A stretch of DNA of 64,000 bases from a phage. The notes under the pieces were generated by a model. The model ran no database searches and had not been told where the DNA came from. It saw only the letters and a list, made by a program, of their open reading frames with translations. This document shows positions 5,812-58,578 of this stretch, piece after piece. The stretch's first letter is position 1. Each line of letters starts with the position of its first letter. The position numbers were made by a program, and so were the translations under genes. Location of the stretch: NCBI GenBank assembly GCA_012338575.1, contig GCA_012338575.1_3616.1. One strand, 5' to 3'.

Positions 5812-6096
5812 ATGGCTATTGTTACCGCTGGCGATGTAGTAGAAATGGAAGCAAAATACTTAAAAGCGGGTATGCATATCCTACGGAATGATCAAGAGTT
5901 ATTATTAACGATGGTTGACTATAATCACGGCCAGGATTATCCAAGCATCGACTACTTTTTTGAGTATGTTGATGAAGAGTTGAAAGAGGATGAGGCCTAT
6001 TGCGGTGAGTTCTGCAACTTCTTTTGTCCTGATGAGGTTGTAAAGGTTATTTATCAACCTGGCGTAGCTTTCCCGCTGCACGCTATCAATAAATAA
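5812..6096 (+). CDS. hypothetical early protein (94 aa)
   Basis: SD ATAGGAG; upstream promoter-like TTGCAT..ATATGGATAATAA. Confidence 0.55.
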   Translation: MAIVTAGDVVEMEAKYLKAGMHILRNDQELLLTMVDYNHGQDYPSIDYFFEYVDEELKEDEAYCGEFCNFFCPDEVVKVIYQPGVAFPLHAINK

Positions 6097-6160
6097 ACCT
6101 GGCGGGGCCGAAAAGGCCCCTACAGCATAAAATTATGAAAATAAAGAGAGGTAAATCATC

Positions 6161-6394
6161 ATGATGGAACAAATTAAACGCACCGAGGCTATTAATGGCA
6201 ATGTGATCTATTTTGTTAGCAAAAACGAAAAAGGCGTACCATATGCGGCGGTAATAGTACAACCTGACGGCGATTATTGGTTTACTGTGTACGGCGCTTA
6301 TTCTTTTGGGCGTCCAGTGCATGATAAAATTTTGAAAGTAGCGAACCCTACCGGGAAGAATATCACAGCAGAAAAATTTTTTGAAAATAGTTGA
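6161..6394 (+). CDS. hypothetical early protein (77 aa)
   Basis: SD AAAGAGAGG. Confidence 0.55.
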   Translation: MMEQIKRTEAINGNVIYFVSKNEKGVPYAAVIVQPDGDYWFTVYGAYSFGRPVHDKILKVANPTGKNITAEKFFENS

Positions 6395-16522: not shown

Positions 16523-16918
16523 TTACTGAAACAGTGCGGATAAATTACCTTCTGGTGGGAACTTATCTGCCAAAAACGGTGTTAGCACAGTAGCCTTCTG
16601 AAGATCTGGGGTCCACTCGTTGTTCAGAACATCCCAGTAGTACGCAATGTTGCTGTGTGGGTGCCGCATTACGAACTTTTTCCCTTCGTAATCATCTGAA
16701 ACCTCTACAGAAGAAATAACAACAGAATCTTCAAGGGTTTCTTCATAGAAAGATCCGCCTTCAAATTTCCAACGAGATGCAAGAGCCCCTGCCTTGAACG
16801 CTGCAGATAAAGGACTGTCGGCAAGAACATACATTTCTTGCACTCTGTCGCTGCGATCTTTGCTTCTTACATTGTATACAGTATCTGAGCTATACTCAAC
16901 ACGGTATAGTCTTACCAT
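16523..16918 (-). CDS. hypothetical protein, paralog family B (131 aa)
   Basis: Shares KKFVMRHPHSNIAYYWDVLNNEWTP motif with 18725-19123 (VFVIVHPDSRVKHYWNARTKTWTP). Confidence 0.5.
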   Translation of the reverse strand: MVRLYRVEYSSDTVYNVRSKDRSDRVQEMYVLADSPLSAAFKAGALASRWKFEGGSFYEETLEDSVVISSVEVSDDYEGKKFVMRHPHSNIAYYWDVLNNEWTPDLQKATVLTPFLADKFPPEGNLSALFQ

Positions 16919-17250
16919 TACCGCACCTCCTCAATAACTTCCACATCTGAACCTACCACAAATGCAAAAGGACAGGTTTCATGAAAGACATCCGGATCGC
17001 CGCCAAGCTTGCTAACAATCTCTCCACCACTAATAAACACAAGCTCACCGATATTCATAAGATTGCTGAAATAGTACCCATAATGATTAAAGAATGCAGC
17101 AGGGTCAGGTAGACTAGTGGCCTCAAGCACTACATCGGTTGAGGTTACTTTCTTATCATAACCTCTCGCCTTTTGAGATGCGAGATCTGCAGAATCCTCA
17201 GGCGACCGGAGATGCACAGGAATTGTTTCACCAATAAAGCGTACTTTCAT
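16918..17250 (-). CDS. small acidic protein, paralog family A (about 110 aa)
   Basis: Starts MKVRFIGE (internal ATG after GGTGA), ends SDVEVIEEVR. Confidence 0.45.
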   Translation of the reverse strand: MKVRFIGETIPVHLRSPEDSADLASQKARGYDKKVTSTDVVLEATSLPDPAAFFNHYGYYFSNLMNIGELVFISGGEIVSKLGGDPDVFHETCPFAFVVGSDVEVIEEVR

Positions 17251-17254
17251 ATTA

Positions 17255-17518
17255 TCACCCAACAACCATAACTTCAAAAGGGGTCATGAACGAATAAACG
17301 GCATCATCATCTGCTTCAAGGAATGCTCCCAAAGACTTCATGTCTGAGCCCTTGACAAATACAAGGTTTTGATCAAAAGCTTCTTGAGGATCAATCCGAT
17401 ACATATTTCGTAGAATATCGCTTATCTCCTCATCAAGAGGTGAGTATGCTGTGCACGTTTTTCCGATCAAGCTTTGAGAATCAGGGTATCCACCTGAAGT
17501 TTTAAAATAAACAATCAT
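17255..17518 (-). CDS. small acidic protein, family A-like (87 aa)
   Basis: LVFVKGSDMKSLGAF resembles family A core. Confidence 0.45.
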   Translation of the reverse strand: MIVYFKTSGGYPDSQSLIGKTCTAYSPLDEEISDILRNMYRIDPQEAFDQNLVFVKGSDMKSLGAFLEADDDAVYSFMTPFEVMVVG

Positions 17519-17609
17519 ATAGTATCACCTCTGGTAAGAGATTGGGATTCCTTTCCCACAAATAATTACAAACCTTCCTTATCGAGGAAGTATGCTAATC
17601 CAAGCAGGA

Positions 17610-17879
17610 TTATTCCTCTACAATCTCATACACATCCGGAGTTACAATCAACTCTTCTCCGTTACCCGGTGCAACAAACACCACCATTCCTTCAGGTGTG
17701 TGCTTTTTAGCCATCTCGATAACATCTTCTCGCAGAGCTGGCTCCATCAGATCAAAACCTTCACCTAGGGCATCACGAACCACCTTCATATAGTCAACTG
17801 GTTGTGCTTCGACAATCATGCCTTCAACCAGTCCACAGTTTTTGTCTGCCAGCTCAGTTTTGAATAATTTAATTTTCAT
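17610..17879 (-). CDS. small acidic protein, paralog family A (89 aa)
   Basis: MKIKLFKTELAD... ends DVYEIVEE. Confidence 0.5.
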   Translation of the reverse strand: MKIKLFKTELADKNCGLVEGMIVEAQPVDYMKVVRDALGEGFDLMEPALREDVIEMAKKHTPEGMVVFVAPGNGEELIVTPDVYEIVEE

Positions 17880-18016
17880 TTAGAGGTCTCCTCAATTATT
17901 TGATATTAATAGCCGTAACCTAACACATTAACTACAACTGCGATTGCAAACATAATTTCAAAGCATGCAATCTCTACATTCGGGACTAATTTCTTAATCA
18001 TGCCCATTGTAGCACC

Positions 18017-18334
18017 TCATTCTCCAAAGTCAATCTTTACTTTGCCTTTCCCTTTACCTTTCTTTCCACCGCATTTAGCCAGCTGACGTGCTGCAACATC
18101 TACCATACGGTCAGTTGCCTCGTAAGCATCACTACCTTTAGCCTTGGCAATAACTTCTTTTCCAGAATTGTCAAAAATGAGCGCCATAACTTCCTGGTGA
18201 TCATTTTCAACTTTTACACTCACACGTGCATAGTTGGCAGAGGGGTGCAAACGCTCCAGCTTAGACATTTTGTGGGAAATGAAAGACACCATACCTTCAG
18301 TGATTTCTACGTTGCCAGTGATTTCAATTTGCAT
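18017..18334 (-). CDS. hpf: ribosome hibernation promoting factor / RaiA-family homolog
   Basis: MQIEITGNVEITEGMVSFISHKMSKLERL...VKVEND...DAYEATDRMVDVAARQLAK matches recalled E. coli HPF (MQLNITGNNVEITEALREFVTAKFAKLEQY...VLKVEK...DMYAAIDGLIDKLARQL) along its length. Confidence 0.7.
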   Translation of the reverse strand: MQIEITGNVEITEGMVSFISHKMSKLERLHPSANYARVSVKVENDHQEVMALIFDNSGKEVIAKAKGSDAYEATDRMVDVAARQLAKCGGKKGKGKGKVKIDFGE

Positions 18335-18416
18335 AACGTGTTCCTTTTAAAGAAGAGGGAACCAAACCCTCTTTGAAAACAATGATACTAAATCTGAAGC
18401 GTTGTGTCAACAGTTT

Positions 18417-18707
18417 TTACAGCTTGTTGTCGATAGTTTTTAAAATATCCACAGCAAGATCTGCCATTTTTCGAACATACTCTGCAAACTCAACAGGATC
18501 CTTGATCAAAGAATTCACAGGGTCGTACCCTAGAGCGTTTAAAATGGCTGCAGCATCTACAACCTTCTCATCATTTGCGAAGATCTCTCCGTCAAACTTG
18601 TAGGTCCATTTTGAGTCAACCTTAGCAGAGCAGGGTTTGTCCATGCTTGTTACACCATCGTCTTTAAACTCTCCTGCGTTATCAATATTTAGAATTAAAT
18701 CCATCAT
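18417..18707 (-). CDS. hypothetical protein (96 aa)
   Basis: ORF in leftward array. Confidence 0.45.
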   Translation of the reverse strand: MMDLILNIDNAGEFKDDGVTSMDKPCSAKVDSKWTYKFDGEIFANDEKVVDAAAILNALGYDPVNSLIKDPVEFAEYVRKMADLAVDILKTIDNKL

Positions 18708-18724
18708 GGTGACACCTCACTGTT

Positions 18725-19123
18725 TCAGTTTAGCCTTTCTTCAACAACCCCATAACTTGGGGCAGAGTCAAGAGCTTTCTGGTTTAAAAGTGGAGTAGCA
18801 GAATCTGCAAACGGTGTCCAAGTTTTTGTTCTGGCATTCCAGTAATGCTTCACTCTGGAATCTGGATGCACTATAACAAAAACTTTTTCACTTGTCAACA
18901 CATTAATTTCTTCTACACCCTTGCTGATAATTTCTCCGTCATAGCCCCCAGTCTGGTATCCTTCGTACCAGGTTCTTGCATAGGCATAGCCAGCCTGCCA
19001 GCATGCAGCCTCCTCCGAGGTGGAGACTACGTAGAAGTCTTTCTCAAATTCTGGAATACGCCCTTGCTTTACGCTCCAAGCCCCGCGAATTTTCATTGTA
19101 ACTTTAAACAGTTTATTTTTCAC
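18725..19123 (-). CDS. hypothetical protein, paralog family B (132 aa)
   Basis: See 16523-16918. Confidence 0.5.
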   Translation of the reverse strand: MKNKLFKVTMKIRGAWSVKQGRIPEFEKDFYVVSTSEEAACWQAGYAYARTWYEGYQTGGYDGEIISKGVEEINVLTSEKVFVIVHPDSRVKHYWNARTKTWTPFADSATPLLNQKALDSAPSYGVVEERLN

Positions 19124-19135
19124 AACGGTTACCCA

Positions 19136-19390
19136 TCACAGCTCTACAATATCTGCATCTGACCCTACCCCAAAGGCATAGTAGGACTCTTCCCCGAAAT
19201 AATATTCAGGTGCACCAGCGGTGATCAGGTCTGATCCCAAGATAAACACCACGTTGTGGCCTACATAACCGTGATGTTGCCGCACAGGATCATCCCACGG
19301 CAACCCTTCAAAGTATACCGCAGGAACGACCTTTCCATTCAGGAAGGATTGTCCCAAGTAGACGTTAGAATCAAGAATTTTAACCTTCAT
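19136..19390 (-). CDS. small acidic protein, paralog family A (84 aa)
   Basis: MKVKILDSNVYLGQ...GSDLITAGAPEYY...DADIVEL. Confidence 0.55.
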   Translation of the reverse strand: MKVKILDSNVYLGQSFLNGKVVPAVYFEGLPWDDPVRQHHGYVGHNVVFILGSDLITAGAPEYYFGEESYYAFGVGSDADIVEL

Positions 19391-19607
19391 GATCGTCCTC
19401 CACTACCTCTACATCCTCACCTAGGGCAAAGTTGTAGGTCCACTGACTGTCAAAGCATTCCTGAGATGCACCAGCGGCAATAAGATCTGCTCCTTTTATT
19501 TTTAAAAGGTCAGGGTAATCTTCGTTAGGGACAGCAGTAAACACTTTTCCTACTAAAGGCTCCTGACCAATATAGAAGCTTGAATCTAAAACTTTAACTT
19601 TCATCAA
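19380..19607 (-). CDS. small acidic protein, paralog family A (75 aa)
   Basis: MMKVKVLDSSFYIGQ...GADLIAAGASQE...DVEVVEDD. Confidence 0.55.
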   Translation of the reverse strand: MMKVKVLDSSFYIGQEPLVGKVFTAVPNEDYPDLLKIKGADLIAAGASQECFDSQWTYNFALGEDVEVVEDDHEG

Positions 19608-54668: not shown

Positions 54669-54743
54669 GCCCTGTTAGCTTAGTGGATAAAGCAGCGGCC
54701 TTCTAAGCCGTTGACACTGGTTCGAGTCCAGTACGGGGTGCCA
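54669..54743 (+). tRNA. tRNA-Arg (anticodon TCT)
   Basis: Manually folded cloverleaf: acceptor GCCCTGT/ACGGGGT, D-arm GCTT-AGTGGATA-AAGC, anticodon loop CTTCTAA, T-arm ACTGG-TTCGAGT-CCAGT, CCA encoded. Confidence 0.8.
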
Positions 54744-54873
54744 AGTTCTTTTTAATGTAGCTTACTTTAGCAGAGTAAATCTTCGGCAAGTGGCGGTAAC
54801 CACTTTACCGATACCTCATAGTTAGTGGTGAGAACACTAGCTATTTTAAAAAGAATTTAAATATTAGTATTTA

Positions 54874-54961
54874 GGTGAGTTAATTCCGTAGGGGTAGCGG
54901 GGCAGACTGTAAATCTGTTATCATTGCGATTCGGGTGGTTCGACTCCATCACTCACCACCA
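54874..54961 (+). tRNA. tRNA-Tyr (anticodon GTA), long variable arm
   Basis: Acceptor GGTGAGT/ACTCACC, anticodon loop CTGTAAA, T-loop GGTTCGACTCC, CCA encoded; 85 nt plus CCA. Confidence 0.8.
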
Positions 54962-55075
54962 AATTTATATTTTTAAATGCATAAATCATACAGGTAATGG
55001 CATTGATATTTATCGTCGTTTATACTAGTCACTAACTGCTCGAAAATCAGTGTCATTATCAGTATTGTTTATAAA

Positions 55076-55166
55076 AGAGGGTAGGGAGCAATGGTGCTCA
55101 AGCGGTCTTGAAAACCGTCCCGTTGAGGATGACTCGATGATGGTTCGATTCCATTATCCTCTGCCA
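55076..55166 (+). tRNA. tRNA-Ser (anticodon TGA), long variable arm
   Basis: Acceptor AGAGGGT/ATCCTCT, anticodon loop CTTGAAA, T-arm GATGG-TTCGATT-CCATT, CCA encoded. Confidence 0.75.
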
Positions 55167-55264
55167 TATTGTTGACCTTGTAATTAAGCGAAAGCCGGAA
55201 GCAGAACCGGATTATCAAATGTTACAGTCGTCATCGCCGACTAGCAACATGGTCAACATACTGA

Positions 55265-55361
55265 GCTAGGTAAGCCCTTTGGCAAGGGCGAGGATTTTTA
55301 ATCCTGAAAATAGACGAGGTAGTCGTTGAATACATAGGTGGTTCGATTCCATCACCTAGCA
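55265..55361 (+). other. aberrant tRNA-like element (canonical acceptor, D- and T-arms; anticodon region replaced/expanded)
   Basis: Acceptor GCTAGGT/ACCTAGC, D-arm GCCC-TTTGGCAA-GGGC, T-arm GGTGG-TTCGATT-CCATC, but middle is AGGATT-TTT-AATCCT hairpin plus about 30 extra nt; no encoded CCA. Confidence 0.4.
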
Positions 55362-55368
55362 CCTTTTT

Positions 55369-55444
55369 GCTGATGTAGCACAATTGGTAGTGCAATTGAT
55401 TTGTAATCAATAGGTTGCAGGTTCAAGTCCTGCCATCAGCACCA
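55369..55444 (+). tRNA. tRNA-Thr (anticodon TGT)
   Basis: Acceptor GCTGATG/CATCAGC, D-arm GCAC-AATTGGTA-GTGC, anticodon stem ATTGA/TCAAT loop TTTGTAA, T-arm GCAGG-TTCAAGT-CCTGC, CCA. Confidence 0.85.
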
Positions 55445-55445
55445 T

Positions 55446-55520
55446 GGCCCTGTAGCTGGAAGGTTCAAGCAAGCGACTCATAATCGCCAGACGGTGGTTC
55501 AATTCCACCCAGGGCCACCA
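55446..55520 (+). tRNA. tRNA-Met (anticodon CAT; elongator or Ile2-type)
   Basis: Acceptor GGCCCTG/CAGGGCC, anticodon loop CTCATAA, T-arm GGTGG-TTCAATT-CCACC, CCA; paired 1:72 argues against initiator. Confidence 0.75.
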
Positions 55521-55531
55521 AATAGTAAATA

Positions 55532-55608
55532 CTCCGCGTAGCTCAGCTTGGTAGAGCGCCTGATTTGGGATCAGGAGGTCGAGTGTTCGAATCACTCCGT
55601 GGAGACCA
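55532..55608 (+). tRNA. tRNA-Pro (anticodon TGG)
   Basis: Acceptor CTCCGCG/CGTGGAG, D-arm GCTC-AGCTTGGTA-GAGC, anticodon stem CCTGA/TCAGG loop TTTGGGA, T-arm GAGTG-TTCGAAT-CACTC, CCA. Confidence 0.85.
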
Positions 55609-56428: not shown

Positions 56429-56712
56429 GAGTTGCTACACTGTTTATTGCGTGCTTGTTATTATGTGGGTGTGCAACCAGTGTTGAGAAAGAATACAAGA
56501 TTGACCCTCCAGATGTAGGAAGGTTGATTGTTAAACCCCCGGAAGGTGCCATGAAACCACCTGCTAAAGCTATACCTTTAAAGAAAGGTGCGCCAGATGC
56601 GGTGAATTCTGGCATTATGAGGGATAATAATCTGTCTTGTAGCAATGATAGAGCTAAATTGATCATTTTGCAAGACTATATTAGAACACTGTTTCCAAAG
56701 GAGAGAGGTTAA
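56425..56712 (+). CDS. o-spanin (Rz1-like outer-membrane lipoprotein)
   Basis: Signal peptide MRVATLFIACLLLCGC with lipobox Cys; Pro-rich mature part; ATGA overlap with i-spanin. Confidence 0.55.
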   Translation: MRVATLFIACLLLCGCATSVEKEYKIDPPDVGRLIVKPPEGAMKPPAKAIPLKKGAPDAVNSGIMRDNNLSCSNDRAKLIILQDYIRTLFPKERG

Positions 56713-57137
56713 TGTCTAAGATTTACGGACCGTGTTCTGAAAAGCAGAAGATGATCCTCGAAAACGATGCAGATATTTTGGTAATCGGCGGTGCCGCAGG
56801 GTCTGGCAAGTCGTTCCTTTTGCAGTTGATGCCGCTTAAAATTATTGATGACCCCCACAGCTCTGTGGTTATGTTCCGAAGAACAACTCCACAGTTGGAG
56901 GGTGAGGGTGGACTATGGCCTAAAGCAGTAGCTATTTATAGTGATCTGCCTGAAAACATTAAGCCAAAGTTCAGAGAGAAGGATCATAAGTTCATTTTTC
57001 CACGGTTTGATCCTAACACTGGTAAGTGGGATAGAAGCAAAAAGGGAGCTGTTGTAAAATACTGCCACATGGAGTATGTACAAGATAAGCTTAACCATCA
57101 AGGGCTTGAGTACACCATGGTTTGCTTCGATGAGGGT
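56712..57137 (+). CDS. terminase large subunit, exon 1 (ATPase Walker A/B)
   Basis: Walker A GGAAGSGKS, Walker B MVCFDEG; reading frame hits stop at 57138-57140 inside intron. Confidence 0.75.
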
Positions 57138-57456
57138 TAATTTGTAGCTCTCGTAAAACCTCCCTAATTGCGGGGAAATCTTTATTATTGACACCACCAA
57201 CCTGTTATGGTAACATGATAGAGGCTTCGAAGAGAGATCGAAGGTATGGTAACAGTGTGTTAATTTAGATAATCCGCAGCGAAGCATCCGAGGGGATGAA
57301 CGTTCAACGACTAGTCGAAAGACGTAGAATCAAGCGATTCGAAACGGGAGGGTAAGCGGTTGTTGTCGCTTATAAGATATAGTCTGGTCTGCATGGAGAC
57401 ATGCAGCTGCCTGAAAATGGCGGGGCAAGACTAGCGACCTTGCCCGAACATAAACG
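57138..57456 (+). mobile_element. group I intron (ORF-less, td-like) interrupting terminase large subunit gene
   Basis: 319 nt without ORF; begins TAATTTG after exon T, ends ...GAACATAAACG; contains AGTCTGGTCTGCATGGAGACATGCAGCTG, AACGACTA, CGAAACG strings recalled from T4 td intron; splicing 57137/57457 is in frame. Confidence 0.75.
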
Positions 57457-58578
57457 ACACAATTCGAATGGGAGCAGATAGACTACCTGATGTCTCGTCT
57501 GCGATCTCAGTCAAAGTATCCATCAAGGATGGTTATCAGCTGTAACCCCGATTCAGAACACATGCTTGCCAAACTGGTTAGATGGTGGTTGGACGATGAA
57601 GGGTATCCAGATCCGGAGAAATGCGGTAAGAAAAGATATTTTATCCGACGCGACGGTGAATTTATTTGGGGAGACTCTAAGGAAGAGTTGATAGAGAAAT
57701 ACACCACGGTTAACGGACTGGGTGTAGAGATCAAGCCAAGACCGTTGTCATTCTCGTTCATAGGCGCAACAATATTCGATAATCCTGTCTGTTTGAGAGA
57801 CAACCCAGAATACCTTGCTTTCCTTGAAGGCCTGCCAGAACTTGAAAAAGCCCAGCTTCTTCATGGCAACTGGTTTGCAAAGCCTGAGGGTGCAAACTAT
57901 TTTCAAAGATCTTTCCTTCGTGATGCCGATAGAGTACCCCTTGGATCAGTATCTTGCAGGGCATGGGATAAGGCAGGAACCGAGAGAACTTCCGGTAATA
58001 AATTTCCTGACTTTACCGCCAGTGTTAAGGTAAGTAAAGATAGCGACGGCTTTTATTACCTGTCCGGTGATTATTGTCCTGAGAACGTGGATGACGGGAG
58101 GTATTCCACAGGTCTGGAAGGTAAGTTCTGTAAAAAGGCTGGTGAACGAGATGTGATCATCAGGAAACAGGCGCAGTTTGATGGTGATGATTGTATAATC
58201 GTATTCTCTGTGGACCCCGGTCAGGCAGGTAAGAGTGAGTTCTTAACATCCTCCAGATCCTTGCTTGCCGAAGGGTTTAGGGTTGAAGAAGACCCAATGC
58301 CTTCCAACAAATCTAAACTGACAAGGTTCTCACCTTTTGCCAATCTTGCCCAACAAGGAATGGTTAGGATTGTAAAATCCAGTTTCCATCCTGATACTCT
58401 GGAAGCATTTCTGACTGAACTTGAAAAATTCAACGGGGAAAGATCAACATTTAACAGGAAAGACGACTGGGCCGACTGTGTAGCTTCTGCGATTAATTTC
58501 CTGGAGAAAGAGGAGGTAGCACTTCCTTGTGTGATTCCATCAATCTCATCACCTTCTATGTTCAAGCGTTTTATCTAA
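57457..58578 (+). CDS. terminase large subunit, exon 2 (nuclease domain)
   Basis: Frame open from 57457 (TQFEWEQIDYLMSRL...); 373 aa C-terminal part; followed by terminator. Confidence 0.7.
   Translation, partial: TQFEWEQIDYLMSRLRSQSKYPSRMVISCNPDSEHMLAKLVRWWLDDEGYPDPEKCGKKRYFIRRDGEFIWGDSKEELIEKYTTVNGLGVEIKPRPLSFSFIGATIFDNPVCLRDNPEYLAFLEGLPELEKAQLLHGNWFAKPEGANYFQRSFLRDADRVPLGSVSCRAWDKAGTERTSGNKFPDFTASVKVSKDSDGFYYLSGDYCPENVDDGRYSTGLEGKFCKKAGERDVIIRKQAQFDGDDCIIVFSVDPGQAGKSEFLTSSRSLLAEGFRVEEDPMPSNKSKLTRFSPFANLAQQGMVRIVKSSFHPDTLEAFLTELEKFNGERSTFNRKDDWADCVASAINFLEKEEVALPCVIPSISSPSMFKRFI

Follow-up and report, generated by a model that had tools for sequence, protein, structure and literature searches.

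A conserved S30AE-family protein of rV5-like coliphages, its early-type promoter and its possible RaiA-like action on idle host ribosomes

Introduction

What would a coliphage do with a ribosome hibernation factor, and is the gene that raises this question still under selection to encode one? The question comes from a 64,000-nucleotide stretch of phage DNA (the window), in which an initial annotation, made from the letters alone, assigned the 105-aa product of an open reading frame (orf) at 18017..18334 to the HPF/RaiA family and suggested that it could silence host ribosomes or bias translation toward phage messages. The source is an rV5-like coliphage (Vequintavirus), with the 2.5 kb surrounding the gene 99.0% identical to O157 typing phage 14. 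The gene, referred to here as hpf, is the ortholog of rV5 gp139/ORF144 (ABI79209, YP_002003641); the two products are 99% identical, with one L/F difference at residue 52, and because gp139 has the same length, promoter (P144), and neighbours, it does not differ materially from the protein analysed here.

Much about this gene is on record. The rV5 entry noted gp139/ORF144 as similar to a Klebsiella sigma-54 modulation protein and placed P144 in front of it, and the annotation of the gene is credited to Kropinski (2013). Mizuno et al. (2019; Nat Commun 10:752, PMC6375957) reported that rV5 (ABI79209, 105 aa) and five related coliphages encode HPF, and their tree puts the coliphage HPFs among gammaproteobacterial HPFs. 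These authors also expressed the rV5 gene in E. coli from pBAD24 under arabinose induction, in cells that were not in stationary phase; mass spectrometry found the protein in the crude extract, it was absent from 70S/100S ribosomes that had been washed in high salt, the 100S peak was unchanged, and no toxicity was reported. They offered growth phase, a true loss of binding, and dissociation in the salt wash as possible reasons, and speculated that competition between viral and host HPF might prevent ribosome dimerisation. Mathieu et al. (2020; PMC6969025) then noted hpf in five rV5-like gut isolates. It is thus known that the gene exists and to which family it belongs, and a first test of ribosome association has been published; in view of these three reports nothing here is new as a discovery; the type of experiment that the initial annotation proposed has been published once, with a negative yet inconclusive outcome. 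Our literature searches found no functional work on phage HPF later than that of Mizuno et al., and no infection-time expression or ribosome-occupancy data for the protein. The additions made here are the strength of selection on hpf, the conservation of its promoter, a diverged sister lineage, three substitutions (V16, V80, and G89), and the features of the C-terminal tail.

Results

The hpf locus and its promoter

The orf at 18017..18334 runs from an ATG to a TGA stop on the minus strand, a detail missing from the initial annotation, and is identified as an hpf-like coding sequence by its matches to Pfam, TIGR00741, and phrog_12469. Its translation, MQIEITGNVEITEGMVSF...DAYEATDRMVDVAARQLAKCGGKKGKGKGKVKIDFGE, agrees with the one given before, Lys/Gly-rich tail included. 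A Shine-Dalgarno-like AAGGAA (18341..18346, minus strand) stands 6 nt 5' of the ATG and is kept in Vequintavirus orthologs. Further upstream, between the stop codon of the preceding gene and this ribosome-binding site, a promoter scan located the sigma-70-type promoter TTGACA-17-TATCAT (18382..18410, minus strand), which agrees with the consensus at 11 of 12 positions. It is the rV5 promoter P144, annotated 'Sigma70-type promoter; P144' in NC_011041. In the seven orthologous loci that were aligned, among them the 64%-identical sister lineage described below, neither the -35 box nor the AAAAACTG before it varies.

The gene sits in a long run of small same-strand orfs that have no assigned function and are equipped with consensus sigma-70 promoters; in the rV5 genome paper, 33 host-type promoters are described and hpf falls within a block of 88 mainly small orfs. 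Promoter and gene block together fit early transcription by unmodified host RNA polymerase, and the placement of the gene among early phage genes in the initial annotation is in keeping with this setting. The predicted 5' end of the hpf transcript contains a 7-bp stem-loop (AAGAGGG-N7-CCCTCTT, 18353..18373, minus strand) with a fold energy of -9.9 kcal/mol and a z-score of only -0.8, which is not significant. Conservation is lacking in the sister lineage and partial in the V18 and L005 loci; because it is weak and only partly conserved, the stem-loop is probably incidental, and it was dropped as a meaningful element. An Rfam scan gave no match in the hpf region.

Several other features of the neighbourhood deserve mention. 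Overlapping the 3' end of hpf is a second promoter-like site (18006..18033, minus strand; TTGACT-16-TACAAT, extended -10 TG), which is directed toward a 33-aa hydrophobic orf at 17906..18007. Two paralogous small early orfs, 16523..16918 and 18725..19123 (both minus strand), flank the hpf region; they are 28% identical (E=1e-11) and have an HPxS..YW...WTP motif in common, and neither belongs to a Pfam family. Two genes downstream of hpf, an 89-aa orf (17610..17879, minus strand) was considered as a second HPF and rejected, having neither a Pfam match nor similarity to HPF. It is labelled 'sigma 54 modulation factor' in APCEc02, nomo, ECP32, navn, and SophiaRose, which looks like a shifted annotation copied between records.

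Orthologs of hpf are present in 119 phage records, and the surrounding region is common to 121. GenBank labels for the product vary between 'hpf: ribosome hibernation promoting factor', 'ribosome-associated translation inhibitor RaiA', 'sigma 54 modulation factor', and 'hypothetical protein', and the RefSeq name is RaiA; the orthologs in OR062528, MT884009, and MT884011 carry the wrong label 'ATP-dependent protease La Type I'. Eighteen MG0656xx records named 'Campylobacter phage' (host C. jejuni) are 96-100% identical to the region 17000..19500, which suggests mislabelled hosts or contamination.

Outside the hpf region, the window holds a group I intron at 57128..57406 (plus strand; RF00028, 83.6 bits against an Rfam cutoff of 50) within 56712..58578. 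It splits the gene for the large terminase into an N-terminal exon orf with the Walker A motif (56712..57140) and a C-terminal orf (57490..58578); that the terminase gene has introns was already reported in the rV5 genome paper. A tRNA cluster at 54669..55608 (plus strand) comprises Arg, Ser, Thr, Met, and Pro tRNAs according to ARAGORN, which also called a 99-nt 'tRNA-???' with a four-base anticodon at 55265..55363, where the Rfam tRNA score was only 35.5 bits. The two programs differed at two further positions: a tRNA at 54874..54958 was found by Rfam and not by ARAGORN, and tRNA-Ser at 55076..55166 by ARAGORN and not by Rfam.

Phage HPF belongs to the S30AE family

The family assignment holds under profile searches. 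Pfam PF02482 (Ribosomal_S30AE) matched residues 3-88 of phage HPF over profile positions 1-83 of 88, with 49.2 bits against a gathering cutoff of 23.7 (E=8.8e-13), and NCBIfam TIGR00741 (HPF/YfiA family) scored 46.6 against a cutoff of 40.9; phrog_12469 was matched at E=2e-70. At the level of equivalogs, the E. coli-type HPF model NF007780 reached 55.8 bits, well below its cutoff of 125 yet the best score of any specific model, and the RaiA/YfiA model NF007654 only 17.7 bits against a cutoff of 158. The best sequence match in the PDB was E. coli HPF (2rql, E=4.3e-12), and residues 1-89 of the phage protein align with residues 1-89 of this structure with a single one-residue gap, so that the collinearity with E. 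coli HPF stated in the initial annotation is borne out.

The fold is backed by modelling. A single-sequence AlphaFold model (pLDDT 58) was discarded and the structure was rebuilt with a 62-sequence alignment. The resulting AlphaFold2 model has a mean pLDDT of 82, with values of ~79-94 over residues 1-90 and below 50 for residues 91-105, and shows the order beta1 (2-7), alpha1 (13-29), beta2 (33-43), beta3 (46-55), beta4 (60-67), and alpha2 (70-89). The S30AE core domain defined by this model and by Foldseek covers residues 1-88 (18071..18334, minus strand). When the model was compared with the PDB by Foldseek, all 36 matches with E <= 0.001 were HPF, RaiA, or pY structures, many of them ribosome-bound; the first was V. 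cholerae HPF (4hei, TM 0.93, rmsd 1.0 A) and the next was E. coli HPF in the 100S ribosome (6h4n_x, 41% identity, rmsd 1.1 A), and weaker matches included dsRNA-binding domains. The C-terminal dimerisation domain (~60-90 residues) of long HPFs, the Gram-positive and plastid type, is absent, as the phage protein stops at residue 105 with no second domain. Taken together, the profile scores, the match to 2rql, and the modelled fold establish that phage HPF is a true member of the S30AE family. It is nearer to short HPF than to RaiA, and the equivalog of neither.

Phage HPF has the fold of E. coli HPF (YhbH; 2rql, 6h4n chain x) at ~40% identity (40% in the sequence alignment and 41% in the structural alignment), and differs from it by one deletion in the beta1-alpha1 loop, one inserted residue (F54), and an additional 10 residues with a (GK)n tail. 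Their genetic settings also differ: the phage gene lies under a predicted early phage promoter, and E. coli HPF is expressed from the rpoN operon. With E. coli RaiA (YfiA, protein Y), phage HPF has in common the fold and a C-terminal extension after alpha2, which is 17 residues long in the phage protein, while RaiA is described as 18 residues longer than HPF; both extensions are basic first and have acidic and aromatic residues at the end. Nevertheless, RaiA is far less similar to phage HPF than HPF is (~21% identity; 17.7 bits for NF007654), and its tail has no sequence similarity to the phage tail and an unrelated composition. S30AE proteins are also encoded by jumbo phages (Cronobacter phage GAP32 and Escherichia phage PBECO4), but these are only 22-24% identical to phage HPF and belong to phrog_8990 rather than phrog_12469. 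The jumbo-phage and Vequintavirus HPFs are independent acquisitions, and the tree of Mizuno et al. (PMC6375957) likewise places the GAP32 HPF elsewhere.

Most family-conserved positions are kept, and three basic ones are lost

For a residue-by-residue comparison, phage HPF was set against 59 bacterial homologs, among which gammaproteobacteria are over-represented. Residues M1, T6, E10, T12, K22, K25, R28, A63, D69, Y71, A73, D75, D79, R83, Q84, K87, and K91 are retained, among them five positions (T12, Y71, Q84, K87, and K91) that are near-invariant in the family, and the motifs DxYxAxD and RQLxK are kept. Relative to E. coli HPF, phage K22 and K25 correspond to K23 and K26, and R83, Q84, K87, K91, and D69-x-Y71 are common to both proteins; in contrast, where E. 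coli HPF has R17, K80, and K89, the phage protein has V, V, and G. The first of these positions, residue 16 in the phage protein, is K or R in 97% of the 59 bacterial homologs and V in both phage lineages. At position 80, which is K in 57 of the 59 bacterial homologs (97%) and corresponds to K84 of S. aureus HPF, the phage protein has V and the sister lineage T, and at position 89 (K in 81% of the homologs) the phage lineages have G or S. Core hydrophobic changes found in both phage lineages are A14G, L40V, A49V, M70A, I74T, and L81A.

In an alignment with what we take to be the S. aureus HPF sequence, whose numbering agreed with the published residues, K27, R30, K84, and R87 fall on phage K25, R28, V80, and R83, so that three of the four are kept. 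Basu and Yap (2016; PMC4889938) assign these four residues to basic patches that are conserved and implicated in contacting 16S rRNA. In the same study, the K84A/R87A protein no longer dimerised, and ribosome binding was lost only in the quadruple mutant.

A Lys/Gly-rich C-terminal tail

The extra Lys/Gly-rich tail that had been described relative to E. coli HPF is real and is read in the translation as KKGKGKGKVKIDFGE. Residues 89-105 (GGKKGKGKGKVKIDFGE; 18020..18070, minus strand) are polybasic, Gly-rich, and predicted to be disordered; 17 residues follow alpha2, compared with ~6 in E. coli HPF, and the net charge is about +4 for the tail and about -2 for the core. The length is ordinary: many gammaproteobacterial HPFs reach 100-115 aa and have a tail that is first basic and then acidic, and according to a 2025 preprint the enterobacterial HPF is the shortened form. 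The (GK)n composition, in contrast, has no counterpart in the set of 59 bacterial tails, and no tail in that set exceeds 2 Gly. In the view set out by Prossliner et al. [quoted passage not shown]

Near its end, the tail has an aromatic residue at tail position 17 after K-x-D/E in both phage lineages, as in one bacterial subgroup, and a K-x-[DE]-[FYW] motif at tail position ~17 occurs in 13 of 50 bacterial tails, compared with 6.1 +/- 1.9 in shuffles. This gives a weak lead that the tail may be ancestral rather than a phage invention, weak because the bacterial matches are closely related to one another. Among phages, the tail is conserved in most orthologs, and some differ only in the last residues (IDFGE, IDFWD, IDFLD, or IDFE). 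It is frameshifted or truncated in L008 (APCEc02) and L009 (Murica), in each case within the A/G-rich repeat, and the A/G-rich sequence coding for (GK)n appears prone to indels. These truncations, in at least two records, could mean that the tail is dispensable, or they could be sequencing errors.

Purifying selection, a sister lineage, and the origin of hpf

Across Vequintavirus orthologs, pairwise Nei-Gojobori dN/dS was 0.04-0.07 at dS 0.17-0.74, and pooled pN/pS over the hpf core was 0.06. The core is nearly invariant across 12 orthologs sampled from the genus and intact in all 119 phage records. Phage hpf is under strong purifying selection.

A sister lineage (P0004), found on metagenomic contigs of 125-137 kb, encodes a 103-aa HPF that is 64% identical and occupies the syntenic position. 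The 12 kb around its hpf and the corresponding part of the window are collinear; a third of this stretch can be aligned, at a nucleotide identity of ~75%. Between Vequintavirus and this lineage synonymous sites are saturated and dN is 0.30. The sister-lineage gene has the same -35 promoter box and a different tail (KYSKSKGIDKRTAKWDY). Phage hpf is clearly functional and older than the split of the two lineages. The sister lineage, which includes contigs L002-L004 (44-126 kb, gene at 6001..6312), is not represented in the INPHARED collection.

When homologs were sought by word index from the single protein, phage orthologs alone were returned. A HMMER scan of 1.84 billion representative proteins gave only 27 matches at E <= 0.001; beyond the sister lineage, the next relative was an enterobacterial-HPF-like protein with 45% identity (E=2.8e-7), and there was no close bacterial donor among the proteins scanned. 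An IMG/VR scan added only 2 loci. With the next relative at 45% and E. coli HPF at ~40%, the source was a gammaproteobacterial short HPF, and either the transfer was not recent or the phage copy evolved fast. The distance of these bacterial relatives qualifies the wording 'relatively recent' used by Mizuno et al. (PMC6375957).

Discussion

Family membership, the fold, the selection on hpf, and the consensus and conservation of its promoter are observed; as to binding, its site, its outcome, and the role of the protein, we infer, with belief and doubt about evenly matched, that phage HPF is a working hibernation factor that, early in infection, attaches to the decoding channel of idle host ribosomes in the manner of RaiA. 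A phage ancestor would have captured a short-HPF-type gene from a gammaproteobacterium long ago, and Vequintavirus would have kept a working copy. On genome entry, host RNA polymerase would transcribe hpf from its near-consensus sigma-70 promoter, and the protein would occupy vacant host 30S/70S in the channel between the 30S head and body, a site that would cover the A- and P-site tRNA and mRNA positions. Contacts would probably be made by the retained basic residues K22, K25, R28, R83, K87, and K91 together with the polybasic tail. Idle ribosomes would be parked as protected 70S monomers rather than driven to 100S dimers, and those freed by host mRNA decay may be kept intact for late phage translation, a benefit that would be felt especially in slow-growing or starved gut E. 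coli.

The RaiA-like outcome, 70S rather than 100S, is most likely on account of the tail that follows alpha2 and of the RMF homolog that tblastn failed to find in the 64-kb window. Protection of ribosomes is plausible because the hibernation factors of E. coli shield 16S rRNA from YbeY and RNase R. High-salt washes strip the bacterial factors HPF and RaiA from ribosomes, so a negative ribosome result is expected even for a true binder. Counting against a ribosome-binding reading are the loss of the R17- and K80-type residues and of K89, the equivalog score of 55.8 against 125, the truncation of the tail in at least two records, and the published negative result on the rV5 protein (PMC6375957). 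Short HPF of the E. coli type converts RMF-induced 90S particles to 100S dimers. With the rV5 protein, no promotion of 100S was observed (PMC6375957).

Of the other readings, the one that survives best is the proposal of Mizuno et al. (PMC6375957) that the phage protein works against hibernation, which in the form considered here we regard as unlikely. Weak, reversible binding at the HPF/RaiA site, with the tail blocking RMF, would leave ribosomes available to phage mRNAs; with the site taken and RMF blocked, host RMF/HPF would therefore be unable to lock 100S dimers. The loss of two conserved basic core residues fits weaker and more displaceable binding, and the tail is placed like the RaiA extension thought to interfere with RMF. 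Gut E. coli, the natural hosts of the phage, are often nutrient-limited, which also suits this proposal. Nevertheless, the early sigma-70 promoter carries no hint of stationary-phase specialisation, and any protein at the HPF/RaiA site also blocks tRNA and mRNA, so it must leave before translation proceeds. The small 100S peak was moreover unaffected when the rV5 protein was expressed, though in cells that were not stationary (PMC6375957).

A loss of ribosome binding, with the fold turned to a new function, seems to us distinctly unlikely, even though the rV5 protein was not found in washed ribosomes (PMC6375957). The R17 and K80 equivalents are lost in both phage lineages, and these lineages stand isolated, with the next relative after the sister clade only 45% identical among 1.84 billion proteins. 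That an S30AE protein can have other partners is indicated by S. aureus HPF, which has a second protein partner, YwlG, and the weaker Foldseek matches to dsRNA-binding domains could be read in the same sense. On the other side, most family-conserved positions are kept, including DxYxAxD, RQLxK, and three of the four basic residues defined by mutagenesis. The salt-wash negative, as set out above, is what a true binder would be expected to give as well.

Host shut-off or translational bias, the idea of the initial annotation, whereby host ribosomes are silenced globally or translation is shifted to phage messages, we consider very improbable. The gene is early and has a strong promoter, and S30AE proteins block the A and P sites; yet binding in the decoding channel is blind to mRNA identity, so phage messages would be blocked too. 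HPF-family proteins, moreover, bind vacant ribosomes and not translating ones. A precedent for bias exists in S. aureus HPF, which represses translation differentially (PMC4889938), but arabinose-induced expression of the rV5 protein left ribosome profiles normal and no toxicity was reported (PMC6375957).

The selection analysis effectively disposes of the idea that hpf is a decaying passenger gene without function, which the frameshifted tails in some records might suggest. Its dN/dS lies at 0.04-0.07 with synonymous sites substantially diverged, 119 of 119 records have an intact core, the promoter is conserved, and the gene is retained in a sister lineage in which synonymous sites are saturated.

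A working, RaiA-like hibernation factor thus remains our preferred reading. Within it, a more particular version is possible, and we put it forward tentatively: phage HPF may be a weakened, tail-anchored mimic of RaiA, in which contacts of the R17 and K80 type have been lost and a flexible polylysine tail gives fast-on/fast-off binding. Such a protein could shield idle ribosomes from the host RNases YbeY and RNase R or from ribosome-targeting abortive-infection toxins, block RMF-driven 100S formation, and yield to phage initiation. The V16, V80, and G89 substitutions and the tail are concrete mutants to test. Phage genes that act on the ribosome are rare, and a hibernation factor made early in lytic infection raises the question of whether ribosomes are parked, protected, or un-parked, which matters for phage therapy against slow-growing gut E. 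coli. If the weakened mimic of RaiA is true, the protein would serve the phage to counter translational dormancy or defence in its host.
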